A stretch of DNA of 64,000 nucleotides from the NCBI GenBank assembly GCA_964354495.1, contig CAYHAA010000002.1, positions 80,234 through 144,233 of the forward strand, given 5' to 3'. The notes beneath the pieces are model-generated. The model saw only the letters and a list, made by a program, of their open reading frames with translations. It had not been told where the DNA came from and made no database searches. Numbering within the stretch: the stretch's first letter is position 1; each line of letters begins with the position of its first letter. The stretch comes from an uncultured archaeon (GTDB lineage Archaea; Asgardarchaeota; Thorarchaeia; Thorarchaeales; Thorarchaeaceae). The position numbers were made by a program, and so were the translations under genes. Below are positions 10,315-48,299 of this stretch, piece after piece.

Positions 10315-10402
10315 CCAATACGTTTTGAGTCGCTACTTCGAAATACACAGCACGTGAAACTCCAGCAGTACCTTTATTACGTAGTTCACTATTGTTAATA
10401 AT

Positions 10403-11824
10403 ATGGAAAGATATGACCTGATCGTCATTGGCTCGGGAGCTGGAATGAACGTCGCCTCTGCGGCTTATGAAAAAGGCTTACGCGTTGCAATAGTTGAGAA
10501 TGGGCCGATGGGAGGAACCTGTCTTAATCGAGGATGCATACCTACAAAGATCCTCACGTATGTTACAGATGTCATTACGGAGGCGAAGCACCTCGAGTCA
10601 CTTGGCGTCAAGCTTCAGGTTGAAAATATTGATTATTCCTGGATCATGAAACGGATGAGAGAAGAGGTCGACACTTCCAGCCATCAGCAGGGACAATCTG
10701 TTGACGAAGCAGAGGGAATTGATTGGTACAAAGGCATAGGGCAATTCACAGACGACTACACGATGGAAATCAATGGTAAGAGAATAAGGTCCCCCAATAT
10801 CGTCATTGCTGCCGGTGCGAGACCGGACATTCCTAAAATCAAAGGTCTCGACGAGGTGGAGTACCTCGTGGAAGATGATGCACTTCATCTCATGGAAAAG
10901 CCAAAGTCCATGATTATCATCGGTGGAGGGTACATAGCTGCTGAATTCGGGCACTTCTTTTCCGCCGTTGGAGTAGCTGTAACAATCATAGGCAGAAATT
11001 CCCACCTGGTCAGGAATGAAGATAATGATGTATCTGAGGTCCTGCGAGAAGAGCTCTCAAAGAGGATGAACATCCTTGTGAATCACGAGGTCATAGAAGT
11101 CAAGCAAGATGGACAACAAAAGATGGCCTGGGCACGCGATTGTGACACCGGCGAGGTCAAAGAGTTTAGGGGAGGGGCACTCCTAATTGCTGCAGGCAGA
11201 CGCTCCAATGCAGACGTGTTCAAACCGGAGAAAACAGGAGTGAAGGTGGACGAGCAGGAGTGGGTCATTGTTGATGACTATTTCAGGACAAGCAAGAAGG
11301 GAATCTGGGCGTTTGGGGACGCCATCGGACGCTATCAGTTCCGACACGTCGCAAATGCCGAGTCAGACATTGTATGGTCCAATCTGTCAGAAGTCATGAG
11401 CAATGGCAAAGACGCCGAACTTCTTACAATGGACTATCATGCTGTTCCGAGAGCTGTGTTCTCATATCCTCCAATTGCGACCGTGGGCATGACACTAAGA
11501 GAGGCAAAAGAGTCGGGGCATCAATTATTGGTTGGACAGGGGGACTACTCTATAGCAGCAAAGGGATTCGCCATGGGGAATCCACCAAGTCTGGTCAGGG
11601 TCATTGTGGATGCTGAGAGTAGGAGAATCCTTGGAGCAAGCATCGTCGGGCCTGATGCGCCAGTGTTGATCCAAGAGATTGCGAACCTCATGTACACTCA
11701 AGATGGCAGCTTCTACCCAATGCTTCAGGCAATGCATATTCACCCGTCACTCAGTGAGGTCGTTCAGAGAACCTTCGGAAGATTGGCGCCGCCGGACCAT
11801 GTACACGGACATCATCATCAATAG
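10403..11824 (+). CDS. Class I FAD-dependent pyridine nucleotide-disulfide oxidoreductase (dihydrolipoyl dehydrogenase-like)
   Basis: FAD motif LIVIGSGAGM, redox-active disulfide GGTCLNRGCIPTK, an NAD-binding GGGYIA motif and a C-terminal HIHPSLSE His-Glu dyad. The tail is an unusual His-rich HVHGHHHQ. Confidence 0.65.
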   Translation: MERYDLIVIGSGAGMNVASAAYEKGLRVAIVENGPMGGTCLNRGCIPTKILTYVTDVITEAKHLESLGVKLQVENIDYSWIMKRMREEVDTSSHQQGQSVDEAEGIDWYKGIGQFTDDYTMEINGKRIRSPNIVIAAGARPDIPKIKGLDEVEYLVEDDALHLMEKPKSMIIIGGGYIAAEFGHFFSAVGVAVTIIGRNSHLVRNEDNDVSEVLREELSKRMNILVNHEVIEVKQDGQQKMAWARDCDTGEVKEFRGGALLIAAGRRSNADVFKPEKTGVKVDEQEWVIVDDYFRTSKKGIWAFGDAIGRYQFRHVANAESDIVWSNLSEVMSNGKDAELLTMDYHAVPRAVFSYPPIATVGMTLREAKESGHQLLVGQGDYSIAAKGFAMGNPPSLVRVIVDAESRRILGASIVGPDAPVLIQEIANLMYTQDGSFYPMLQAMHIHPSLSEVVQRTFGRLAPPDHVHGHHHQ

Positions 11825-36629: not shown

Positions 36630-37703
36630 CTAGTCTTTCCAATCCAGAGTTTCAAAATCCCGCAACTTCTTCCACTGAGCAGCCCCGGCAATGGCAGCAA
36701 TAATCAAGAGAGAAACCAGGAACACTGCGAAATTCTGATAGGCATTGAAGCTGTCAGCGAAGAACCAGAACCAGAGCGTCAGGACCACTAACCATGCGAA
36801 ACCTATGCCAATTGAGAACCAGCTCTCTGGGCCTTCGCCTCTCACTCGTGCCCATGGAAGCCACAGACCTAGAGCGAGCAATCCGAAGATCACGAAAGAG
36901 AGAAGGACTGTTCCAACATTCTGGTTTCCTGAGAACATCCCAGCAAAGAACCACATCCAGATGATGATGAACACAACCCATAGAATGAATCCAATGGCTG
37001 AGAGCTTCACTCTCTTTTCAGCACCCTCTCCTGCCTCAACTTCAATTCTCATTTCTTTGCGCCATGGCAAAGCAACTATTCCTACCATCACAAGAAAGGA
37101 TGTTAAGATCACTGCAACAGCGTGGTATGCGTCAAGTCCGAGGTCGTTCGCAAAAGGCAGGAACAGAACCATGAACATAAGCCACCCAATGCCTCCAATC
37201 GCACTCACACGTGCCCCCCAGGCGTCGCCATGGCTTGGGACCCACAGCAGCACATTGAAAGCTCCTACTGTCAGCAGCGATGCAAGAGCTATGCCAATGT
37301 TCTCATAGATGCCGAAGCCGCCAGAGAAGAAGATGATCCAAATGGCGAGAAACACTAACCAGATCAGTGCTCCAATTGCACTGGTCCTGGCTTTGATGCC
37401 TTCTCGATCTGATGGAATCCAGAGGATTGAGTTCAAAGCAACAACAACAAGTAGCGCCACAAATACAACTGCAATATTCTCAAAGATGCCATATGCGCCT
37501 GCGAAAAAGAACAGCCACAGAATGAGAAATGCCATCCACACAATGAAGCTGCCCAGAGAGGCGTATGCCTTAAGCGTAGGCATTCTATGGCCATGCTTCT
37601 TCTCTGCTTTCTTTCTTATTTCATCTTCGAGGTCGAATGGCTCCTTCTCAGCATCATCAGATGGCTTTTCAGAAGGAGCATCATCTTCATTATTGGACTT
37701 CAT
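36630..37703 (-). CDS. Integral membrane protein built from five tandem ~55-aa two-TM hairpin repeats, with an acidic N-terminal cytoplasmic tail
   Basis: Repeats share the pattern S(A)IG..W..F....W..FF.G.....N...........L......W.P: KAYASLGSFIVW..., KARTSAIGALIW..., ARVSAIGGIGW..., KLSAIGFILW..., SWFSIGIGFAW.... The start is set at the MKSNNEDD ATG (37703), not the upstream track start. Confidence 0.5.
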   Translation of the reverse strand: MKSNNEDDAPSEKPSDDAEKEPFDLEDEIRKKAEKKHGHRMPTLKAYASLGSFIVWMAFLILWLFFFAGAYGIFENIAVVFVALLVVVALNSILWIPSDREGIKARTSAIGALIWLVFLAIWIIFFSGGFGIYENIGIALASLLTVGAFNVLLWVPSHGDAWGARVSAIGGIGWLMFMVLFLPFANDLGLDAYHAVAVILTSFLVMVGIVALPWRKEMRIEVEAGEGAEKRVKLSAIGFILWVVFIIIWMWFFAGMFSGNQNVGTVLLSFVIFGLLALGLWLPWARVRGEGPESWFSIGIGFAWLVVLTLWFWFFADSFNAYQNFAVFLVSLLIIAAIAGAAQWKKLRDFETLDWKD

Positions 37704-37834
37704 AAGTTCAACTCTCCAACCAATCTGGAACCTCTGTACGCGCAAGCCCCTTAAATCGCTTTGGAATAGCACGGAGATTCCATTATCATGGCATATCCTA
37801 CATAACAATAGTTAAATGAAGTTCTCTTGGGATT

Positions 37835-38323
37835 ATGGGGATGATGGAGGAGCGAAACGTGTCAGAAGAAAAAATGACGATTGAAGAATTCCACAAGAGA
37901 ATGGCTATCAATACGAATAACGGCATCTGGCCTATCCTAGATAAATCAGCGCCCACGAAAGATGAGCTCGAAGAGGCACTTCATATGGCACACACGTCTC
38001 TCTATCATTGGAGTGAGGTGGGTCAGCCGATCAATATTGCGCGAGCAGAATACATGGTTTCACGAGTCTACTGTGCCTTCTCATGGGCAGAGCCTGCGCT
38101 CTATCACGCTCAGAGATGTCTCAAACTTACTGAGGAGATAGGAACTGGCGACTTCGACCTAGCTTTCGCATACGAAGTAATGACCCGGGCATATTCGGTG
38201 GCAGGAGAGAAAGCAAGGTGCAAGAAGTATCGAGCCCTCACGCAGAAGGCCACAGATGCAGTAAAGAATGAAGAGGACCGTAAGATCTGCCAAGCGGAGC
38301 TTGATAAGATCAAATGCAGCTAG
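37835..38323 (+). CDS. Hypothetical soluble alpha-helical protein
   Basis: 162 aa with no motifs recognised. Its 3' end overlaps the long-ORF version of the PhzF gene. Confidence 0.3.
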   Translation: MGMMEERNVSEEKMTIEEFHKRMAINTNNGIWPILDKSAPTKDELEEALHMAHTSLYHWSEVGQPINIARAEYMVSRVYCAFSWAEPALYHAQRCLKLTEEIGTGDFDLAFAYEVMTRAYSVAGEKARCKKYRALTQKATDAVKNEEDRKICQAELDKIKCS

Positions 38324-39337: not shown

Positions 39338-39898
39338 TTGGAGCTGCAAGACTTGACTACACGCAATCCAATCTTTAAGGTAGCATTGATTGGAGAAGGT
39401 GGCGTCGGAAAGACAAGCCTAGCTGTACGTTACACTGAAGACCGATTCGACCAGCAGATGAAAATGACGATTGGTGTGAACTTCGCTACCAAGAGAGTCA
39501 ATGTCGCTGGTACTGACCTGACCCTCCTCATTTGGGACTTGGGCGGACAACCTAGATTCCAAGATGTGGTCATGGACTACTTCAAGGGTTCAAAACTAGG
39601 AATTGCGGTCTACGAGGTTAGCAGGTCTTTCACCATGTACAGGCTCGATAATTGGATTGCAAAGCTTCACAACAGTGTCCCCAACTGCGATATCTTTCTT
39701 GTAGGCAACAAGATCGATGAGCGTCTTCCGGGGATGGGAGTGACAAAAGAAGAGGCTCAGCAATTCGCGGATCAGTACCATGCTCAAGTCTTCGAAGTAT
39801 CAGCAAAGACAGGGGAGGGTGTAAGCCAGATGTTCGAGGCAGCAGGCAAAGTTCTCTCAGAGCGAAGCACTAAAACTAGTTCCGGAGTTGAACACTGA
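39338..39898 (+). CDS. Rab/Ras-like small GTPase
   Basis: G1 GEGGVGKTS, switch-I T in TIGVNF (a RabF1-like IGVxF), G3 WDLGGQ, G4 GNKID and G5 SAKTGEGV. There is no C-terminal Cys prenylation motif. Confidence 0.8.
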   Translation: MELQDLTTRNPIFKVALIGEGGVGKTSLAVRYTEDRFDQQMKMTIGVNFATKRVNVAGTDLTLLIWDLGGQPRFQDVVMDYFKGSKLGIAVYEVSRSFTMYRLDNWIAKLHNSVPNCDIFLVGNKIDERLPGMGVTKEEAQQFADQYHAQVFEVSAKTGEGVSQMFEAAGKVLSERSTKTSSGVEH

Positions 39899-39994
39899 GT
39901 CAATCCTGAATCGATTTGTACGCAGTATCATTAAATATCGCCTAGTATTCCTTAATCAAGGACCACTAGCAGATCGCAAGACGGAGACCTAGGC

Positions 39995-40255
39995 TTGGCA
40001 AAAGTGAAACTCAGACCGTTTGCTTGTCCCTCCTGTGGGCAAGGCAAACTGGTCTATGTGGAAGTCGATGAATTGACTATCACAAGAGCGAAACGGTTTC
40101 CAACCATCGTGCAAGCCAAGTGTGGAAAGGGCCATCCTTTGGTTGTCTTTGTCGATGCGAACTTTCAAGTTCGAGATGTCGAAGCTTCAGCTGTGGCGAC
40201 GGAAGAGGAAAAAGACGCAGTCGAGAAGACAAAGGGCTGGTTCGAGTCATTCTAG
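39995..40255 (+). CDS. Small Zn-ribbon protein
   Basis: CPSCGQ...(27 aa)...CGKGH four-ligand zinc ribbon and an acidic C-terminus, at 86 aa. Confidence 0.4.
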   Translation: MAKVKLRPFACPSCGQGKLVYVEVDELTITRAKRFPTIVQAKCGKGHPLVVFVDANFQVRDVEASAVATEEEKDAVEKTKGWFESF

Positions 40256-40420
40256 TCGTGAGATGCTACGAGGTTCAAGAGGCAGTGGAAAACGAATGGC
40301 ATGTGCCACTACGTGGGCATTTCGTTGCTTACGAATGGAAGTCTAGTGTTACGCTCGGACTCGAACACGAAGCTCCATGGTGCAGACGTGGATAGCACAT
40401 GGTAACGGGGACTAAACACG

Positions 40421-40855
40421 ATGTATGGAATCTTCGTCATCAATGATGCGGGTGAAACAATCGCTTCCGTAGGATGGGAGAACCTCGAAGGCGACACGGC
40501 ACTTATTGGTGGATTTGTCTCGGCACTACAGATGTTCATCAAGAAGATTTCCGGAAACGAGATGAACGAACTCCTTTTTGGCGAACTCAAGTTGCTTATC
40601 GGAAAAGCTGGAGACAACTATATTGTGACACTGCACTCGGTTGATGACAAAGAAGCCAAAGCCCACAATCGAGAGGTCATCAAATTCGTCACTGAACGGG
40701 GTGACGAGATCGATGACGGTGTTCTCATCTTGGTCAACGAGATGATATCCGGTGAAACTACTCCTGAGGAAGAAGAGAAGGTGCGTCGCGGCGTACGCGA
40801 ATGGACAAGCGGAGCAGGTACGGCTGCAAAAGAGTGGGGAAAGAAGGTGTTTTAG
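40421..40855 (+). CDS. Roadblock/LC7 (MglB-like) or longin-like domain protein
   Basis: The segment GIFVINDAGETIASVGWEN...DTALIGGFVSALQMF...GELKLLIGKAGDNYIVTLHSV matches the roadblock alpha-beta-alpha pattern. It is followed by an acidic or Lys-rich tail. Confidence 0.5.
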   Translation: MYGIFVINDAGETIASVGWENLEGDTALIGGFVSALQMFIKKISGNEMNELLFGELKLLIGKAGDNYIVTLHSVDDKEAKAHNREVIKFVTERGDEIDDGVLILVNEMISGETTPEEEEKVRRGVREWTSGAGTAAKEWGKKVF

Positions 40856-40867
40856 GAGGACAAGTTC

Positions 40868-42283
40868 ATGGAAGTATACGAGATAGCATATGTGTTTCTT
40901 GGACTGGCAACATTAGTGGCCGCTGGAACCATTATTAACTATAGTCACAAGAGATCCGTAGCATCTCCGGACCCTGAGATTAAGAAAGCCTTCAGACCGC
41001 TCTATATCTTCGCCATCGGTCTAATCGTTTTTGGAATTGGAGCTCTGCTTACATTCCTCGTGCGCAACAATCAGATTTTCCCATGGGATGATACTTCTTT
41101 CGTCAGATTGCATAATCCGTACCTGAGATATTACACGATATTCTATGTATTCACTCTTGTTGAGTTGTTCTTCCTGACTATCGCAGCTGCGATGATTCTG
41201 AAACAATGGTTGATTTCTGTATTCATGGCCATTATGATTCTTATTGCGTTTCTTCTAATCTTCAATGCTGTTCTAATCGTCGAAGACATGAGAACAAGCA
41301 ATGTGGCGGAATTCTATATCAATTTTGGTAACGTATTGAGTATAATTCTGCTATCTGCAAATGCTGCCCTTTTTTCATGGATAGCAAATGATACAAGAAG
41401 GAGCACTAGCATGGCATTGGGCTACGCTATGATTGTGCAAGTCCTAGCAGTTCCACGTTTCTATGCAATACTGCCAACAGAACTGATATTCGCAATTACT
41501 GTCTTCGCACTTATGGGTCCAGCAATGATTGCTTTTGCGTTTCTGCGGCCGGACCAGAAGATATCAGTTGAACTCCTTGGTTATGGCGCCAGCTTTGCTG
41601 GGCCGGTTGTCATCTTCGCCAGTCTCATTTCGGCAGAACTTATCTCTAATCCCTTTATTGTTATTATAGCAGTATTTGGAGCAATAGCTATTGCCTTGGC
41701 GACTGGAACAGCTTCATACGCCTATGGCAGGTGGAGAGAGACTCGTCAGCTGCCTACAGCATTACTGATGGTCATCTTCGCAGCTATAGCGGCAGGACAA
41801 ATGATTGGCATGTTGGGTACCTTTCAGGTACTGCCGAACCTATGGTCAATTTACTTTGATTTTGCCGTGACTTCCTTTGCACTGGCTGTTTTCACATCTG
41901 TGGGAATCATGGCAGCCGGATATCGCACCTTGGCGTCATTACCCCTACTAGTCTATCTGCCAACAGCGATACTCATTACTCAACGCTTTCCGAATTCAAT
42001 CAGCCAGGCGTTTCTTGATTACGCCTATCTCGCAATTCCGGCGATGCTGTTCTTCTTCGTACCAGTGTTCCTTTTTGCAGGAGCTTGGAGGAGAATGAAG
42101 AAAGCTGGAACTGCTGGGAGAATGAGACCACTGGGGATGTCGGTTGGATTATTGCTGTTCTTAATAATCAGAGTCGCTTCTCTTCTCGCCGACATTCAAT
42201 TTGGAGATCCTGGTTACGGATTGGTGGCAATTGCGCTTGCAGTCCTCTGGTTGTCAATCACTGGCAGACTCGATAGATACTAG
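40868..42283 (+). CDS. Large polytopic membrane protein (about 12-14 TM), hypothetical
   Basis: Hydrophobic throughout. It starts 12 bp after the roadblock-like gene stop on the same strand. Confidence 0.45.
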   Translation: MEVYEIAYVFLGLATLVAAGTIINYSHKRSVASPDPEIKKAFRPLYIFAIGLIVFGIGALLTFLVRNNQIFPWDDTSFVRLHNPYLRYYTIFYVFTLVELFFLTIAAAMILKQWLISVFMAIMILIAFLLIFNAVLIVEDMRTSNVAEFYINFGNVLSIILLSANAALFSWIANDTRRSTSMALGYAMIVQVLAVPRFYAILPTELIFAITVFALMGPAMIAFAFLRPDQKISVELLGYGASFAGPVVIFASLISAELISNPFIVIIAVFGAIAIALATGTASYAYGRWRETRQLPTALLMVIFAAIAAGQMIGMLGTFQVLPNLWSIYFDFAVTSFALAVFTSVGIMAAGYRTLASLPLLVYLPTAILITQRFPNSISQAFLDYAYLAIPAMLFFFVPVFLFAGAWRRMKKAGTAGRMRPLGMSVGLLLFLIIRVASLLADIQFGDPGYGLVAIALAVLWLSITGRLDRY

Positions 42284-42401
42284 TACGAAGCATAGTGCCG
42301 TTCTGTCTCTCATGACTTGGATGGCGTGATAGCCTGCACTCATCTTTCAGAGAACTCTAGAAACAAACGTATTTCTACTCTAATATGAGAGAAAGTATGC
42401 T

Positions 42402-43169
42402 ATGCAATTCGAGAGTATCGTCATCAGAGTCTTTGATGCTGATTTCATGTTCTTCGACCTTGCATTGACCGGGCTCTGGATTCTTCTACTCTACAAGAAG
42501 GGTCTCATAGTACCGTTACTATTCGGCTTCTTTGGAATCTTAGTGAATTTCATCGTTGACTATTTCTACTGGTACAGCATTCTTGGCATTCGAACAGTTG
42601 AGGGGTTGCCAAGTTGGATGTCGCCATTGGGTTTTTTCGTGTACTTCTCAATCACATATGGCATGATACAATACTCATATGTCCAGGTCATGTTCATACG
42701 TAGACCTGAGCAACCAAGGACTGAAAGGGAAAATCGAATAAAGTGGTCACTATTCCTCTTCACAGGTTGGCTTGCAATAGGTCTTCTATCGAACGTTATC
42801 CCAATCAACGATTCCGAAGTGACAGTAGCACGAGTCATGACGGAACAACGAATCACTGAGGTCTATGCTGTCATTGCTGAATACGCTCTATTGTTCCTAC
42901 TAGCAGTCAAGAAGAAATTCGAACTGAGTCCTAAGCGGATGTTGTATGTTTTTCTTGTCGGTATCTTTGTTCACTTCTCCATGGAGATTACTCTTGTACT
43001 GTCTGGAATGAGGGCATCAAGCGTCTTTGACATTCTCTTCAATAGCGTCTTTGAGTTCAACACCGGAACACCAATCCTCTATCTCATGATGTTTGCACTC
43101 ATCTCCTGCGTTGAGAAACTCAAAAAGAGGACTCCTCAGGGCTTACCGACAGAGTCTAGGAGACATTGA
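42402..43169 (+). CDS. Hypothetical integral membrane protein (about 7 TM)
   Basis: Multiple hydrophobic helices. It is co-oriented with the GTPase/roadblock genes. Confidence 0.4.
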   Translation: MQFESIVIRVFDADFMFFDLALTGLWILLLYKKGLIVPLLFGFFGILVNFIVDYFYWYSILGIRTVEGLPSWMSPLGFFVYFSITYGMIQYSYVQVMFIRRPEQPRTERENRIKWSLFLFTGWLAIGLLSNVIPINDSEVTVARVMTEQRITEVYAVIAEYALLFLLAVKKKFELSPKRMLYVFLVGIFVHFSMEITLVLSGMRASSVFDILFNSVFEFNTGTPILYLMMFALISCVEKLKKRTPQGLPTESRRH

Positions 43170-43266: not shown

Positions 43267-45912
43267 TCAGTCCCTGAAATCTTGATTCTCATATTCATTG
43301 GGATCGGCATCAAAGGTTGTCTTGCAGTATGGGCTGCAGAAGTAGTACTTCTTCCCCTTGTACTCACTAGTCAGTGATGCGCTGGCAATCTCGACATCCA
43401 TCTTACATATTGGGTCTATCGCTACTTTGGGTACATTCGGCACAGTCTGTTTCTCTCCCGGAACATCAACTATGTCTTTTGGTTCAAAACGCCCAAGTAG
43501 TAGAGCATTAGATACAACGCTCACACTTGACAGTGCCATTGCGAGACCCGCGAACTCAGGTCGAAGCGCAAGTCCAGTGAATGGAAAGAAGACACCTGCT
43601 GCGACGGGCACCAAAATCATGTTGTAAATGAGGGCCCAGAAGAAACCTTGGCGGATCTTTGAAACAGTTCTTCGACCCAGCTCAATACCTGATACGACAT
43701 CGGTCAGTTCATTGCGAACCAGGACTATGTCACCAGTTTCGACTGAAACATCGGTCCCCGAACCAAGAGCTATTCCGACATCTGCCTGAGCAAGAGCAGG
43801 AGCGTCATTGACACCGTCTCCTACAAAGGCCACTGTCTTGCCCTCATCTTGAAGTCTTTTGACATTCTCAGCTTTCTCGCTTGGAAGAACCTCGAAGAGG
43901 ACGTTGGAAATACCAAGTCTCTCAGCAATTGCGTATGCTGTTCGCTTCTTGTCTCCTGTTATCATCCATATCTCTATGCCAAGTTGCTTCAACGCATCGA
44001 TGGCATACGTTGAGCTTGACTTTAACGGATCAGATATTGCAGCAAGAGCCAATGCACTCGAATCTGCCGCAGCAAAGACCGTTGTCTTGGCTTGTTTTTC
44101 TAGCTCCTCTGCGTGAGTTTCAAGCTGGCTGATATCCACTCCGTTTTCGTTCATGAAACGACTGCTGCCCACAAGAACTGTTATTCCATTGATTATCGAA
44201 GTCACACCCCGGCCAGAATGCGATTGAAATTCCATCGGTTTTGTAATATGAACATCCATCTCCTCTGCATAGCGCACAATTGCCTCAGCAAGGGGATGCT
44301 CACTTCCTTTCTCAACAGAAGCCATGAGCGCGAGCGCGTCCTCGCTCTTCACTTTCGGTGCCGTGATGAAGTCAGTCACAGCAGGTCGTCCAATGGTCAG
44401 AGTTCCTGTCTTATCGAAGACAATCGTATCAATGTTAGGAATTGTCTCTAGCCCTGCTCCATTCTTAATGAGAATACCATTCTGAGCCCCCTTCCCAAGG
44501 CCGACCATGATTGCAGTTGGTGTCGCAAGACCCAATGCACAAGGACATGCTGCGACAATGACAGCAGTTGTGAAATTGAGGGCAACGTCCCAAGTTACAC
44601 CGCCCAAGAATACCCATCCAAGAAATGTAGCCAACCCGATTATGAGAACAATTGGCACAAAGTACTCTGCTATAGCATCAGCTTTCCGTTGAATTGGAGG
44701 TTTTTGTGTTTGGGCCTCCTCGACTAAACGGACTATCTGTGAGAGTGCAGTGTCTTGTCCGACCTTCGTAGCTCTAATCCGGAGCAAGCCGTTCTTGTTA
44801 ATTGTAGCTCCGATCACCTGGTCGCCAATATTCTTCTCCACCGGAATTGATTCACCAGTGATCATCGACTCATCAACCGATGACTTGCCTTCAGAGACTT
44901 GACCATCAACAGGGATTTTGTCGCCAGGTTTGATGACCAATAGATCCCCGACTTCAACATCCTCTGCTGGGATGGTAACCTCCTCCCCATTCCTAATAAC
45001 CACAGCAACTGTGGCTTGAAGGTCCATTAGACTACGTATCGCTATTGAGGTTCTTCCTTTCGCATATGCCTCTAGCCACCTGCCAAGAAGAATGAAGGTG
45101 ATTAGCGCAGCTGATGTATCATAGAACGACATGTAGCCCGTGAGAAAGAATGTTGCAGCCACTGAATAGAAATATGCAACACTCGTTCCAAGCATGATGA
45201 GAGTATCCATGTTCGTCTTGCCATGAACTAGTGCTCTGAAACTGGACCGATAGAATGGATAACCTGCAATGAACTGAATCGGTGTCGCAAGAATGAACAT
45301 GATCAGGTCCAAAGGAAGTCCGGCGGGAAGGAGTGCACTTCCGAAAGTCATGAACATAATCGGAATAGTGAGAATGAGCGCGAAGACAAACCGGTATTTG
45401 AAATACTTAATCTCTTCTTCCCTTGCAAGGGTCTCCCTATCGACACCCGAAACTGTACTTTCTCCAATTTCGAATCCTAATGAATGCAATTGGCGGCGCA
45501 CAATCTTGGGAGTCAATAGGTCTTCATCATACTCTACAAGGACACGGCCTGACTCCGAGTATGTACTCACTGATATTGCACCAGTAAGAGCTTCTATCGA
45601 CTCAGCAATCCCATTCCATTGGCCATCTCTGGGAGCAGGCTCAAGCGTGAGAGTCATCACAGAGCGTTTTGCGCGGTAGCCGCTGGATTCGACAGCTCTC
45701 TCCAATGCGGATCTGTCAGTCTTCGCTGACTCGAACTCAACCACTGCCTTCTCATCCAAGAGGCTGACTGTTGCATGTATGACTCCATCCTGACTCATCA
45801 GCGATTTCTCAACGGTAGCTACACAAGATGCACAATGCATGCCTTCAATCTTCATGGATATGCGTTCTTTGCCATCACCGACTGTAGTCTGCGCGCTCAT
45901 GATATCGTCCAC
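43267..45912 (-). CDS. copA: Cu+-translocating P1B-type ATPase with an N-terminal HMA domain, a degenerate second HMA-like domain and a C-terminal TRASH/YHS-type metal-binding domain
   Basis: GMHCASC metal-binding site, CPC transmembrane motif [16 protein letters not shown] phosphorylation site and GDGVNDAP hinge. The C-terminus has CKMDVE...YYFCSPYC, a TRASH/YHS-like motif. Confidence 0.85.
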
Positions 45913-45953
45913 CTAAAGCACAGCAAATAAACAATAGTTAATACCATATGCGC

Positions 45954-45961
45954 TTTATAAA
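45954..45961 (-). promoter_or_regulatory. Palindromic TATA-box candidate (TTTATAAA) upstream of copA
   Basis: TTTATAAA lies about 42 bp upstream of the copA start codon in an AT-rich 80-bp intergenic region. Its position fits an archaeal TATA box with a short 5' UTR. Confidence 0.3.
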
Positions 45962-45991
45962 TCCTAGGATGCTGCCATGAAAACGCAGCCA

Positions 45992-46597
45992 TCATCCAAT
46001 GAAGAAGTCGCTCTCCTTCTTCCCCTCAGCCTCGTCCATCAAGCGCAATAGCTCTGTGAAAGCATCTTGGATCCCATCTCCGGTCTTGGCACTGGTTTCG
46101 CGAAAGATAGCGGGAACTCCAAGTTTGTTAATGAAGTACTTAGTGAAGTCCTTGCCCTCCTCAGTTGTCACATACTTGGACTTGTCAAGTGAATACCGCA
46201 GGTCTGTCTTGTTTCCAATAATGACAGTGGGTGGCAATGGACCCATATTCTTGAAAGCCTCAACTAGCCACTTGGAGGCATTCTCGAACGTTGACCGATT
46301 CACTACTGAGTATACCAACAGAATGCCATTGCAGCCCGAATAATAGTGGCCTCTGACTTTCTCGAATGTTGGCTGACCAGCAAGATCCCAAATGATGAAT
46401 TTTACGATATCCTGGTTAAACAAGACCCGCTTTGTCGCCAAGTCAACACCAATCGTAGCAATGTGACCTTCAATGAACTCCTCGCCAAGATAGTTGCGGC
46501 GGATACTAGTTTTGCCAACTGCGCCGTCCCCTATGAGAACTGCCTTCAAAATTATGCTGCCATCATCTTGGTCCTTCACTATACGGTACCCTCGCAT
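45992..46597 (-). CDS. Rab/Ras-like small GTPase (second copy)
   Basis: G1 GDGAVGKTS, switch-I TIGVDL, G3 WDLAGQ, G4 GNKTD and G5 SAKTGDGI, at 201 aa. Confidence 0.8.
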   Translation of the reverse strand: MRGYRIVKDQDDGSIILKAVLIGDGAVGKTSIRRNYLGEEFIEGHIATIGVDLATKRVLFNQDIVKFIIWDLAGQPTFEKVRGHYYSGCNGILLVYSVVNRSTFENASKWLVEAFKNMGPLPPTVIIGNKTDLRYSLDKSKYVTTEEGKDFTKYFINKLGVPAIFRETSAKTGDGIQDAFTELLRLMDEAEGKKESDFFIG

Positions 46598-46720
46598 TCA
46601 TAGAATCGTGGGCTTTCATTTGCATTGGGTTGGTAAGAACCTCCCAATTCCACGCGTTACAATACTTCATGGCCTCACGCAAATAAGGTTAGCGATATGA
46701 TAGGTTCGGATATGTCATTG

Positions 46721-47188
46721 TTACACCTGATCCACAGGATTCATCGAAGGATCTTGTTCATCTTCGGTAGTTTTCTTCGGATTCTTGGAATCAAGTCCTT
46801 CATACCTTCTATTGAATCGCCTTAATCCAATGTACAGAAGCCAGTAGACCCCCGCCATAAGCAGAATAGGCGGAAAATGCCAGAGGACAATGAAGCTGAA
46901 TGTCGAAATCGAGAGAGGAGTCCCTTCGTAAACATAAGTTGTTAGTCGCAGCTCATCTCCGCCAGTAAGTTTGACAAGGATGGAAAAACTGTAGAAAAAT
47001 GTGGCCACATACATATCCCATCCAGCATCATTCACGTCCTCTTTATCGATAACGAACTGAGCAACTACTCTTGCCTCATCACCTACTGCGGTCCATGGAT
47101 TGTTTATTGTCATTTCACCAGTATAATTTGTTTCTGTCATCACTGTTGCCTGGAATACCAGCTCCTGAAAATCAGCAACAGATCCCAC
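46721..47188 (-). CDS. Hypothetical small membrane protein (2-3 TM)
   Basis: Hydrophobic helices with an acidic C-terminus. It lies upstream of and co-oriented with the second GTPase gene. Confidence 0.3.
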   Translation of the reverse strand: MGSVADFQELVFQATVMTETNYTGEMTINNPWTAVGDEARVVAQFVIDKEDVNDAGWDMYVATFFYSFSILVKLTGGDELRLTTYVYEGTPLSISTFSFIVLWHFPPILLMAGVYWLLYIGLRRFNRRYEGLDSKNPKKTTEDEQDPSMNPVDQV

Positions 47189-47270
47189 TTCAAGAAGCCT
47201 TAGAACAAAGTATAATTCTGAAACGGAATCAGTTGTCCAAAAATCATAGTGAAATGAGGGCGGATCAAGA

Positions 47271-48299
47271 ATGAGAATGCTGCTATTCGTGGGTGTCTTG
47301 GTAGCGATATTGCTCTATTCGATTGGATTTGATGGGACGTACATGTCAGATGACATAGAATCAGTGAGCAATTCAAGGCCCAGTCAAACCTACACACCTC
47401 ATGCTCCGATGGTCATAGACTCCAACGATGATTTTGCCAGTGAAGGTTGGTCGGGGGGAGGAATTCAAGGCAATCCCTATACGATTGAGTGGCTCGAATT
47501 CACAAGCGCAATTGACGAAGCATGCATAAGTATAAGCATGACAACCGCTTGGTTCAGAATTCGGTACTGCTGTTTTGCTCCAACCGATTTTGCTTATGCT
47601 GTTACCCTATGGAATGTTTCAAATGGTGAAATCCTGCATTGCATTACAGCTGAACCTGCAGGGATTATCTCAGTCGGCCTGTCCTCAGACATTCAGCTAG
47701 GACAGCTAGAATTACATGGAACATGCATAATCATGGAGTACTCCTGGATGTGTAGTGTTTCAGAGTGTAATACCTATTACGCGCCTGGAGATGGCGTGTT
47801 TTTCAATGGTTGCAGTCAAATGACAGTTGAAGGATGCGAAATCTCGTTTTCCACAGCAGCTGGAATCTCTCTAGCAGATACAGGATATTCATCATTTCTT
47901 GACAACATCATCTATGAGAATTCTATGGAACCGATATTCATCACTGGGACCTCTTCCGAAAATCAAATTTACAATAATGAGATTCATTTAGTTTCTTACT
48001 GGGAAGCCAAGGATGACGGAGTCACTAACTACTGGGACAATGGTGTGTCTATAGGGAATATGTGGTCGGATTATGATGGGACTGGCTATTACTACGTCCC
48101 CGGTTCAGCCGGGTCCATTGACCATTATCCAAGAGTGATATCTTCGACTACAAATACAACGAATACTTCACCGGGACCTGCAGAGGTCTTGATAACAACT
48201 TGGGCACCAATGGATATGTCAGTGAGGGTCATACTGGCAGTGTCAATTGGAATGCTATATGGCGCTCTCGTTATCATAATCATCAAACGACTCAGGTAA
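47271..48299 (+). CDS. Secreted, C-terminally membrane-anchored protein with a right-handed parallel beta-helix (pectin-lyase-fold / NosD-like) domain
   Basis: N-terminal signal peptide. It has repeated G/N-rich beta-helix turns (ISLADTGYSSFLDNIIYEN, ITGTSSENQIYNNEIH), N-x-S/T sequons, a Thr-rich linker NTTNTS and a C-terminal TM helix with KRLR stop-transfer. Confidence 0.45.
   Translation: MRMLLFVGVLVAILLYSIGFDGTYMSDDIESVSNSRPSQTYTPHAPMVIDSNDDFASEGWSGGGIQGNPYTIEWLEFTSAIDEACISISMTTAWFRIRYCCFAPTDFAYAVTLWNVSNGEILHCITAEPAGIISVGLSSDIQLGQLELHGTCIIMEYSWMCSVSECNTYYAPGDGVFFNGCSQMTVEGCEISFSTAAGISLADTGYSSFLDNIIYENSMEPIFITGTSSENQIYNNEIHLVSYWEAKDDGVTNYWDNGVSIGNMWSDYDGTGYYYVPGSAGSIDHYPRVISSTTNTTNTSPGPAEVLITTWAPMDMSVRVILAVSIGMLYGALVIIIIKRLR

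Follow-up and report, generated by a model that had tools for sequence, protein, structure and literature searches.

We find that the second of two small GTPase genes in the window (by which we mean the whole 64,000-nt stretch of Thorarchaeaceae DNA analyzed here) encodes an ordinary Asgard Rab-like GTPase, a protein of an already known kind, which we call Rab2. The explanation that we favor, and that we consider as a whole very likely, is that Rab2 would be a stand-alone Rab-like switch with a promoter of its own, that the membrane-protein ORF beside it would be a remnant placed there by deletion, and that the copper ATPase gene copA on its other side would be separately promoted.

Gene model and affinities of Rab2

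The minus-strand ORF at 45992..46597 encodes 201 aa and carries GDGAVGKT (G1), the switch-I Thr, WDLAGQ (G3), NKTD (G4) and SAK (G5), so that the complete motif set predicted for a second GTPase, with WDLAGQ in G3, is all found. With G1 to G5 in a G domain of ~170 aa and a match to Pfam Ras (PF00071; 137.8 bits, E=3.2e-40), Rab2 belongs to the small GTPases of the Ras superfamily; the sole NCBIfam assignment for both window GTPases is the generic small_GTP domain. The gene most likely starts at the GTG at 46579 and not at the ATG at 46597, which lies six codons upstream in frame, because nearly all orthologues, found in 52 species-representative Thorarchaeota loci, have 195 aa. These begin M[KR]DQDDGS, a Shine-Dalgarno-like GAGG lies 11 nt upstream of the GTG, a gene call made independently on this sequence is likewise 195 aa long (the catalogued form, P0133 at locus L061), and an exact-sequence look-up with the 201-aa ORF returned no match. 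On this model Rab2 occupies 45992..46579 on the minus strand, with K23/T24 in the P-loop, T42 in switch I, D65-G68-Q69 in switch II, N123-K-T-D126 and S163-A-K165, and it ends in ...KKESDFFIG, where Cys is absent.

The orthologues in the 52 loci are 65–94% identical, with hardly any variation in the switch regions or at either terminus. None of 49 orthologues has a Cys in its last 28 residues, and the C-terminal CC/CXC geranylgeranylation motif of eukaryotic Rabs is missing from Rab2. Relatives of the GTPase number at least 899, and the NCBI records for several orthologues already read "Rab family GTPase". In the PDB the best match of Rab2 is the Thorarchaeota Rab 7EZB (E=9e-32, 41% identity), followed by ~59 eukaryotic Rab entries including Rab11, Rab14, Rab1 and Sec4; identity is 32–39% to eukaryotic Rabs, 27–29% to HRAS, RALA, RAP1A and RHEB, and 24–27% to Arf. 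The phmmer scores follow the same direction, with 72–100 bits for eukaryotic Rab, 73 for Ran, 60–70 for Rho (compared by this score only), 39–59 for Ras and 28–35 for Arf, and phmmer and blastp together rank the families as Rab > Ran > Rho > Ras > Arf > Rag for both GTPases. A neighbor-joining tree, the only tree method used, unites eukaryotic Rabs and the Thor sequences in one clade with support of 100/100; among the reference sequences for the tree, phmmer and blastp, 7EZB and RABA1a came from the PDB search. Taken together, the PDB matches, the scores and the tree put Rab2 nearer to Rab than to any of the Ras, Rho, Ran, Arf and Rag families. The Rab affinity proposed for both GTPases is thus borne out. 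The RabF1–RabF5 motif set, discussed in PMC4915359 and reportedly that of Pereira-Leal and Seabra from 2000, has the consensus IGVDF, KLQIW, RFRSIT, YYRGA and LVYDIT; judged by inspection against this consensus, Rab2 has IGVDL (4/5), KFIIW (3/5), TFEKVR (1–2/6), YYSGC (3/5) and LVYSVV (3/6).

One could instead regard Rab2 as a prokaryotic polarity GTPase of the MglA/Rup type that is not Rab-like, which would suit its prokaryotic host and the absence of prenylation cysteines, and published ML and Bayesian analyses were inconclusive about where archaeal Rab-like proteins branch deep in the tree (PMC4915359). We hold this to be highly improbable, since neither window GTPase matches Myxococcus xanthus MglA at E<=10 in phmmer, where Rabs reach 72–111 bits (the prokaryotic reference in the comparison was MglA), the G3 motif WDLAGQ differs from the MglA-type motif, the best 60 PDB matches are all Rab or Thor-Rab, and no roadblock/longin gene adjoins Rab2 in any of the 52 loci. 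With the bacterial MglA/MglB polarity module Rab2 shares that it is a prokaryotic small Ras-like GTPase, but sequence similarity to MglA was not detected, and while the roadblock/longin-fold neighbor of the first window GTPase recalls MglB, Rab2 has no such neighbor.

As a Rab-like GTPase, Rab2 has its best solved relative in Thor-Rab of Candidatus Thorarchaeota SMTZ1-45 (KXH73347.1; PDB 7EZB, 7EZD, 7EZE), to which it is 41% identical over 175 residues and with which it shares the single G domain, the WDLAGQP switch II, a short C-terminus without Cys and the phylum. Rab2 therefore fits the Asgard Rab-like proteins of the Thor-Rab type. The two are paralogues, as the SMTZ1-45 orthologue of Rab2 sits on another contig (L012, 85–86% identity). 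Rab2 differs in having Ala41 at the position of the switch-I Arg37 of Thor-Rab, small insertions after G4 and before G5, a conserved acidic N-terminus, an ...F-x-G tail and more degenerate RabF3–F5 motifs. Thor-Rab binds GDP and GTP-gamma-S, hydrolyzes GTP slowly in a manner like Rab11B, has no prenylation Cys, and carries an Arg37 that is absent from its paralogues; the same study reports neither REP nor RabGGT homologues among Asgard archaea (Tran et al. 2024, PMC10933270). Eukaryotic Rabs (Rab1, Rab11/RABA1a, Rab14, Sec4, Ypt7) come second to Thor-Rab, with E-values of 1e-28 to 1e-23. Rab2 resembles them in having all G motifs, in RabF1 (IGVDL vs IGVDF) and in its neighbor-joining grouping, but lacks their prenylation motif and hypervariable region and matches their RabF2–F5 only in part, and no Rab subfamily can be assigned. 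Family-level likeness to Rab, no prenylation Cys, a shorter C-terminus and membership in a set of several paralogues per Asgard genome are also features of the archaeal "Rab-like" GTPases described from Lokiarchaeum and a few other archaea, a study that did not describe the Rab2 orthogroup or its synteny with copA (Surkont & Pereira-Leal 2016, PMC4915359).

The membrane-protein ORF beside Rab2

A minus-strand membrane-protein ORF of 155 aa with a GTG start is present at 46721..47188, as predicted, but it is not a complete gene. In-frame homology to a family of 205–228 aa runs upstream to ~47245, without a start codon, and then ends, and the feature at 46721..47245 on the minus strand is best described as what is left, after loss of the 5' part, of a gene for a Thorarchaeota-specific secreted protein with a C-terminal anchor. 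Homologues are 190–228 aa long, and most have an MRGKGVVLGLL... signal peptide, which is among the first ~47 codons that the window copy has lost. The family is small, with 12 clusters as against the GTPase relatives counted above. At its C-terminus the remnant has a TM segment and then a basic stretch on the cytoplasmic side, RRFNRRY, and of the full-length protein only ~20–30 C-terminal residues are predicted to be cytoplasmic. An NCBIfam JDVT-CTERM match on the TM tail (E=0.008) is below the cut-off and is not relied on. In the WPFPP motif a nearly invariant Pro (12/12 homologues) is His in the window, which is consistent with relaxed constraint on the remnant, and is Pro in an assembly 99.95% identical to it. 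As the frame is still open over ~174 codons, some residual expression or function of the remnant may persist.

The comparison with relatives indicates that two lineage-specific deletions have placed the remnant beside Rab2. In relatives the order is a NosD-like and a 110-aa gene, divergent from the membrane gene, AlkZ, Rab and CopA, with the NosD-like gene following and overlapping the 110-aa gene. At the first junction (47243..47245), blastn against locus L006 shows 549 bp to be gone, which removed the 110-aa gene together with the divergent promoter region and cut 141 nt from the 5' end of the membrane gene, so that the start of the gene for a NosD-like beta-helix protein with an N-terminal hydrophobic segment (47271..48299, plus strand) is now joined head-to-head to codon ~48 of the membrane gene. 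At the second junction (46698..46720) an AlkZ-like gene of ~1.3 kb is absent, and homology to the AlkZ–GTPase spacer of L008 restarts at 46697. Both junctions are clean in blastn. The independent, 99.95%-identical assembly (L060) has the same first junction and structure, and in L061 the genes stand in this order too, with the ORF again called at 155 aa.

The membrane protein had been proposed to act as the effector of Rab2 or to recruit it, the two genes making up a module that recurs at the first GTPase. The two genes are indeed adjacent on the same strand, 123–141 nt apart depending on the GTPase start, the frame of the remnant is open with its C-terminal TM segment and basic RRFNRRY, and membrane proteins do occur in the conserved cluster of the first GTPase. 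The adjacency is, on the other hand, confined to the window lineage and was made by AlkZ loss: in L004 and L006 the membrane gene and the GTPase have an AlkZ-like gene between them, and in L008 and ~20 other species such a gene immediately precedes the GTPase. This membrane gene was found near the Rab2 orthologue at none of the 52 species-representative loci, and a metagenome scan for further membrane-gene loci returned a single one. AlkZ intervenes wherever both genes occur, and no conserved, intact pair was seen. The steady partners of the membrane gene are the divergent 110-aa gene, plus the following NosD-like gene in L003–L007, and a distant homologue (L063) retains the 110-aa partner where the GTPase is absent. 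The window copy has moreover lost its signal peptide, start context and promoter, Rab2 retains a putative promoter of its own in the spacer, and the His in WPFPP is consistent with relaxed constraint. We regard such a module as most improbable; as far as the genomes compared here can tell, it is unsupported and the pairing refuted, because the membrane gene is a decapitated leftover brought adjacent by two deletions. Two outcomes had been named as telling against the original prediction, namely a common MglA/Rup-like clade for both GTPases and a flanking membrane gene that is not conserved, and only the second was found.

The first window GTPase, Rab1, was correctly predicted to lie within 7 kb of Rab2. 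Its Ras-family ORF (39338–39898, plus strand; Pfam Ras 1.3e-39), at a distance of 6.1 kb, opens a plus-strand cluster at 39338..43169, convergent with copA, that continues with genes for an 86-aa Cys-rich protein (39995–40255), a 144-aa longin-like protein (40421–40855), a 471-aa polytopic membrane protein starting 12 nt past the longin gene (40868–42283) and a 255-aa membrane protein (42402–43169). The statement that each GTPase is next to a membrane protein does not hold here either, as the 86-aa and 144-aa genes separate Rab1 from the 471-aa membrane protein. Rab1 and Rab2 are 34% identical, and their sequences mark them as old paralogues, not as copies of a repeated module. The Rab1 cluster with its longin-like and polytopic membrane proteins is conserved, and this cluster, not the Rab2 locus, is the better place to seek a GTPase/regulator/membrane module.

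Promoters and the conserved order with copA

We infer that Rab2 has its own conserved promoter. The near-invariant CGCTAACCTTATTTGCG at 46678..46694 on the minus strand, ~100–115 nt upstream of the start, would be its BRE/TATA element; the near-invariant ACACTAACCTTATTTTG stands ~105 nt upstream of Rab2 in ~37 of 39 aligned loci, and the core 11-mer of the motif occurs once in the window. A conserved GGGAGG (46640..46645, minus strand) lies at a fixed 43–49 nt from the TATA-like motif, within a predicted leader of ~60–80 nt. RNAalifold on a MAFFT alignment of the leaders predicted no structure, and an Rfam scan of 45800–47400 returned nothing. Several clades show a hairpin that presents GGGAGG, with a mean z of -0.6 against shuffles, 5 of 38 sequences individually below 0.05 and a combined p of 0.002 from non-independent sequences; with so weak a signal we do not claim a structured RNA. 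An upstream ORF after GGGAGG was rejected on inspection, its start codon and frame being inconsistent among the leaders.

The copA gene (43267..45900, minus strand) encodes a Cu(I) P1B-type ATPase with HMA, E1-E2 ATPase, HAD hydrolase and C-terminal YHS domains. Its start is most likely the ATG at 45900 (SD GGTGG; 877 aa, as in the L002 and L061 calls), so that the gap to Rab2, predicted as ~80 bp, is 79 nt to the listed ORF (GTG at 45912) but 91 nt to the likely start. The palindromic box predicted in this gap does exist, as TTTATAAA at 45954..45961 on the minus strand, but the best reading makes it the copA TATA box; ~27 loci show GTTATTAG or TTTATAAG, both TATA-like, at this position before copA. 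Separate from it, and ~12 nt downstream, is a conserved palindrome, TTAAC-N4-GTTAA, of which the window has a copy with one mismatch, TTAACTATTGTTTA, at 45928..45941 on the minus strand, at the predicted copA transcription start. The positions of both elements are fixed upstream of copA across loci, and the palindrome appears to be operator-like. A gene for a PadR+TRASH regulator stands between the GTPase and copA in 12 loci, and none was found within the window. Loci with this regulator are without the palindrome, and PadR+TRASH is therefore probably not the factor that binds it. Just past the Rab2 stop, a hairpin, GCTGC-GTTTTCATG-GCAGC, with a T4 run (45971..45989, minus strand) is possibly a weak terminator of the Rab2 gene; a run of at least four T within the first 45 nt past the GTPase stop is seen in 9 of 27 loci.

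In 43 of the 45 loci that could be evaluated, copA lies downstream of the GTPase in the same orientation, by far the best-kept adjacency in the loci sampled, and the spacer is 50–125 nt in 24 of these 43, with a mode of ~79 nt. What we take as mere synteny could mean a functional link. Rab2 might have a functional tie with the copper ATPase, or with metal homeostasis, either by read-through co-transcription or as a switch on CopA activity, assembly or localization. The order outlasts inserted cop regulators, a YHS gene or an FTR1 iron permease, it persists although CopA has diverged to ~56–65% identity, and clear terminators are rare after the GTPase gene; with T-runs so few and the spacer constant at ~79 nt, some read-through from Rab2 into copA may occur. 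The FeoB iron transporter, which is controlled by a G domain, offers a loose analogy, while we know of no precedent for coupling of a Rab-like GTPase to a copper ATPase. We nevertheless judge the coupling unlikely, as copA has a conserved putative TATA box and operator-like palindrome and the GTPase a conserved, putative promoter of its own, insertions of 0.5–7 kb between the genes are tolerated, L037 and L056 have no copA within 10 kb of the GTPase, and the GTPase has changed far less than CopA, which points to constraint of another, housekeeping kind. There is, likewise, only a slim chance that Rab2 is kept beside copA through a tie to metal-transporter biology, be it control of CopA activity, membrane insertion or localization, or read-through co-expression; if true, archaea would supply a precedent for a small GTPase that controls a P-type ATPase. 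We favor separate transcription units, given the TATA-like box and palindrome between the genes and the putative promoter of the GTPase itself.

Rab2 as a stand-alone switch

Rab2 is thus proposed to be most likely a GTP/GDP molecular switch, with nucleotide-binding and catalytic motifs intact, the switch-II Gln included. With Ala41 in the place where MglA and Thor-Rab have an intrinsic Arg finger, it probably depends on a GAP and a GEF from genes at other sites. Having no Cys, it cannot be prenylated, and the likeliest docking elements would be its conserved acidic N-terminus, M[KR]DQDDGS, and its conserved C-terminal tail, E-S-[DE]-x-[FY]-x-G. Judged from its promoter and leader, expression would be monocistronic. 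The membrane remnant would be a 3' piece, without promoter or signal peptide, of a surface-protein gene from the NosD-like/110-aa unit, and copA a copper-efflux gene under its own putative promoter and operator, so that the GTPase–copA order would be synteny kept at the border of a gene cluster for metal homeostasis.

A suggestive pair of GTPase and membrane protein here dissolves on comparison with related genomes because it is a deletion scar, which is a caution for similar cases. The synteny of Rab2, which almost always has copA next to it, is a mild curiosity. What we offer for Rab2 is a corrected gene model, of 195 aa, with a candidate promoter of its own and N- and C-terminal tails that are kept. 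Asgard Rab-like GTPases bear on how membrane trafficking arose in eukaryotes, and what is now sought is their partners; the Rab2 orthogroup, with 52 loci and conserved tails, is a good candidate for partner-fishing.

Gene models and Rab affinity of the GTPase

The minus-strand GTPase gene, first listed at 45992–46597 (201 aa), lies where the original prediction had placed it and carries the full small-GTPase motif set (GDGAVGKT, the switch-I Thr, WDLAGQ, NKTD and SAK). Also present are the membrane ORF upstream on the same strand (46721–47188; 155 aa, GTG start, hydrophobic C-terminal segment), copA directly downstream of the GTPase (43267–45912 as listed, minus strand; Pfam HMA, E1-E2 ATPase, HAD and YHS), and a second Ras-family ORF at 39338–39898 on the plus strand, here called Rab1. 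Pfam places both GTPases in the Ras family (E=3e-40 for the one under study, 1e-39 for Rab1).

The source label of nearly all homologues of the GTPase is Candidatus Thorarchaeota, and when one genome per GTDB species was scanned, orthologues turned up in 52 loci at 65–94% identity, the closest being that of Thorarchaeota OWC2 (L008; 93–94%). In nearly all of them the protein is 195 aa long and starts with M[KR]DQDDGS, from a variable start codon (ATG, GTG or TTG) with a GGAG-type Shine-Dalgarno sequence about 10 nt upstream. The equivalent start in the window is GTG 46579, with GAGG upstream, and the gene call is also 195 aa in L061, a 236-kb Logan contig with the gene order of the window and an identical copy of its 144-aa protein; the GTPase therefore probably starts at GTG 46579 and not at the originally proposed ATG 46597. 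For copA the most likely start is ATG 45900 (Shine-Dalgarno GGTGG), which gives the 877 aa found in L061 and in the related locus L002.

The Rab-like assignment is supported by several comparisons. In a PDB search the best solved relative was the crystallised Thorarchaeota Rab 7EZB (Thor-Rab; E=9e-32, 41% identity), and the 59 matches listed after it are all eukaryotic Rabs (RABA1a, Rab14, Sec4, Rab1, Ypt31/32, Rab11, Rab2, Rab21, Ypt7 and others). Against a small reference panel, whose scores are only indicative, the GTPase scored 111 bits with Thor-Rab, 72–100 with eukaryotic Rabs, 73 with Ran, 60–70 with Rho, 39–59 with Ras, 28–35 with Arf and 14 with RagA, and M. xanthus MglA gave no match in this panel. 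In a neighbour-joining tree (200 bootstraps; likewise indicative) a single clade with a support of 100 holds all eukaryotic Rabs as well as 7EZB and the two window GTPases with their orthologues, and Ras, Rho, Ran, Arf, Rag and MglA lie outside it, so that both GTPases group with Rabs and not with MglA; branching inside the clade was without resolution. Published maximum likelihood and Bayesian analyses likewise describe archaeal Rab-like proteins as Rab-like at the family level with an inconclusive deep placement, and as always devoid of prenylation cysteines (PMC4915359). Among the Rab family motifs, RabF1 is well preserved (IGVDL) and RabF2–F5 match partially. The GTPase belongs to an already catalogued kind, the Asgard Rab-like GTPases, and several orthologues already carry the NCBI name 'Rab family GTPase'.

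The C-terminus of the protein reads ...KKESDFFIG, and the C-terminal tail contains no Cys in any of the 49 orthologues compared. These 49 sequences hardly vary in their switch regions, at their acidic N-terminus or in the tail E-S-[DE]-x-[FY]-x-G, and such strong conservation of the switches and both termini points to conserved partners. Both GDP and GTP-gamma-S are bound by Thor-Rab, whose GTP hydrolysis is slow, much as in Rab11B, and whose switch-I Arg37 is absent from its paralogues (Tran et al., PMC10933270). The window GTPase is such a paralogue, with Ala in place of Arg37. We suggest that it would act as a conventional GTP/GDP switch needing external GAP and GEF proteins, and that docking to a membrane or partner, if any, would occur by means other than a lipid anchor.

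Origin of the adjacency with the membrane ORF

The pairing of the membrane ORF with the GTPase as its membrane effector is refuted by comparative genomics. The membrane gene was found within 10 kb of the GTPase in none of the 52 species-representative loci, so their synteny is not conserved. In relatives with a full-length membrane gene (L003–L007), a NosD-like and a 110-aa gene (both minus) diverge from the membrane gene (plus), which is followed by a gene for an AlkZ-like DNA glycosylase (plus); where the contigs reach further, in L004 and L006, the Rab gene (plus) follows AlkZ, and L006 continues into copA (plus).

By these comparisons, the adjacency is the outcome of two deletions. Positions 47845–47243 of the window align to 165–767 of L006, and the abutting positions 47245–46788 to 1317–1774, which means that 549 bp of L006 are absent from the window. 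These 549 bp hold the 110-aa gene, the (promoter) region between it and the divergent membrane gene, and 141 nt at the start of the latter. The same junction occurs in L060, an independent assembly 99.95% identical to the window over 2137 bp, and L061 agrees in gene order and in its 155-aa call, which excludes a local assembly error. Gene order from Fpg to Rab1 is the same in L008 and the window, except that AlkZ stands in L008 where the window has the NosD-like gene and the membrane remnant. The window matches the AlkZ-Rab spacer of L008 again from 46697, 24 nt past the remnant stop codon; the lineage of the window has therefore lost an AlkZ gene of about 1.3 kb. The NosD-like beta-helix gene (within 47243–48299) may now be promoter-less with its ORF intact, since the 549-bp deletion also took away the 110-aa gene that overlaps it upstream, together with the shared promoter region.

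Relatives of the membrane ORF form only 12 protein clusters in a collection of 5.8 billion sequences, and those bearing a source name are all labelled Thorarchaeota. Ten of the 11 non-identical homologues are 205–228 aa long, the exception being the 190-aa P0124, whose gene call begins within the signal peptide. In order, full-length homologues have an N-terminal signal peptide (MRGKGVVLGLLVLFIICQFPMQVEA|G), a domain of about 140 aa, the motif W-P-F-P-P, then a TM helix and the basic stretch RRFNRRY; the full-length protein is accordingly a secreted surface protein with a C-terminal anchor, of which only some 20–30 residues would be cytoplasmic. The window copy lacks the first 47 or so codons: in-frame homology (…DFWTTDSVSELYFVLRLLEVGSV…) extends upstream of the remnant GTG to about 47245 and stops there, with no start codon in between. 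The sole difference between the window and L060 in 2137 bp changes the WPFPP Pro to His in the window remnant. This position is Pro in 12 of 12 homologues, and the change, a single case, would fit a dead gene under relaxed constraint. It is the 110-aa gene that forms the conserved partner of the membrane gene, with the NosD-like gene standing behind it in L003–L007; the 110-aa gene is retained, divergent, even beside a distant homologue (L063; 39% identity), which has neither AlkZ nor a GTPase downstream.

Rab1 and its gene cluster

A repeated architecture of GTPase plus membrane effector had also been proposed. The idea of a GTPase accompanied by a regulator and membrane proteins finds no support at the GTPase/remnant locus and some at Rab1. 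The two GTPases are only 34% identical, and Rab1 forms a separate orthogroup in the tree; they are old paralogues and no recent repeat. Rab1 heads a plus-strand cluster (39338–43169), convergent with copA. Next come genes for a Cys-rich, zinc-ribbon-like protein of 86 aa and a protein of 144 aa, then, after a gap of just 12 nt, one for a polytopic membrane protein of 471 aa, and last one for a membrane protein of 255 aa. L008 and L020 have the whole cluster, L017 and L027 lack the 255-aa gene, and L011, L012, L026 and L058 retain part of it, always convergent with copA. The structure model of the 144-aa protein has a beta-beta-alpha-beta-beta-beta-alpha longin fold (pLDDT 74), and Foldseek matched it, with E values around 1e-4, to VAMP7 longin, AP2 sigma, Mon1-Ccz1 and LAMTOR. 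This lends some support to the combination of GTPase, regulator and membrane protein, a known theme in Asgard genomes, and makes the cluster the better candidate for such a module.

Predicted promoters and the synteny with copA

Upstream of the GTPase start (46598–46700), a near-invariant ACACTAACCTTATTTTG is found in about 37 of 39 aligned loci. Its window copy, the 17-nt CGCTAACCTTATTTGCG (46678–46694, minus strand), has a core 11-mer that occurs once in the 64 kb, and by archaeal promoter architecture we take it as a putative gene-specific BRE/TATA promoter. GGGAGG (46640–46645, minus strand) follows this element at a fixed 43–49 nt and precedes a variable part and the GGAG Shine-Dalgarno sequence, within a leader of about 60–80 nt. 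In some clades a hairpin, or a DNA palindrome (GTCAATTGAC), surrounds GGGAGG, with weak statistics; Rfam gave no match in this region.

A TATA-like box (TTTATAA or GTTATTAG) in the GTPase-copA spacer is common to 27 loci, together with the palindrome TTAAC-N4-GTTAA some 12 nt beyond it; the window copy of the palindrome (TTAACTATTGTTTA, 45928–45941) lies where copA transcription is expected to start. The 772 kb of loci contain only 17 exact copies, and the palindrome is missing from loci with a PadR-winged-helix + TRASH regulator gene beside copA. The conserved motifs predict that copA has its own promoter and operator. The TTTATAAA originally described as a palindromic box is indeed in the gap (45954–45961), and is most simply the copA TATA box, the conserved palindrome being separate. 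With up to one mismatch, the window holds six palindromes against 0.75 expected, the others at 10385, 37802, 48498, 56227 and 59171. That at 37802–37815 lies between the divergent genes 36630–37808 and 37835–38323, the former (minus strand) encoding a 392-aa membrane protein of repeated two-helix units that matches Pfam PEN-2 (presenilin enhancer 2, a gamma-secretase subunit; 28.1 bits, cut-off 25, E=2.9e-6).

copA lies downstream on the same strand in 43 of the 45 loci with enough downstream sequence, at a spacing of 50–125 nt in 24 (mode about 79 nt), 0.5–1.8 kb in 16 and about 7 kb in three; L037 and L056 have no copA within 10 kb. Twelve loci with longer spacers have the PadR/TRASH regulator gene in between, sometimes with a small YHS gene; an FTR1 iron permease gene takes this place in a few further loci. 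In L015 (11512–17486), L035 and L037, an FTR1-type permease, a NIF3-like protein and a LonB-like protease stand between the GTPase and the cop regulator or copA, so that the GTPase borders a variable metal-homeostasis cluster. L056 has a different Ras-family GTPase (177 aa; 10719–11252) directly after the orthologue in place of copA. In L034, L038–L041 and L052 the orthologue is preceded, at a distance of about 200 nt, by a second copy of the GTPase (60–64% identical), and L042 and L048 have one further upstream; the tandem copies sit between AlkZ and the orthologue.

The main rival reading, a functional link between the GTPase and copA, could draw on an adjacency far better kept than any other there (AlkZ is upstream in about 21–23 of 52 loci) and on clear T-runs past the GTPase stop in only 9 of 27 loci, so that transcription may read through into copA. 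We regard such a link as improbable and treat the order as conserved synteny at the border of a metal-homeostasis cluster. The synteny with copA, the conserved tails and the conserved putative promoter are left as modest leads.
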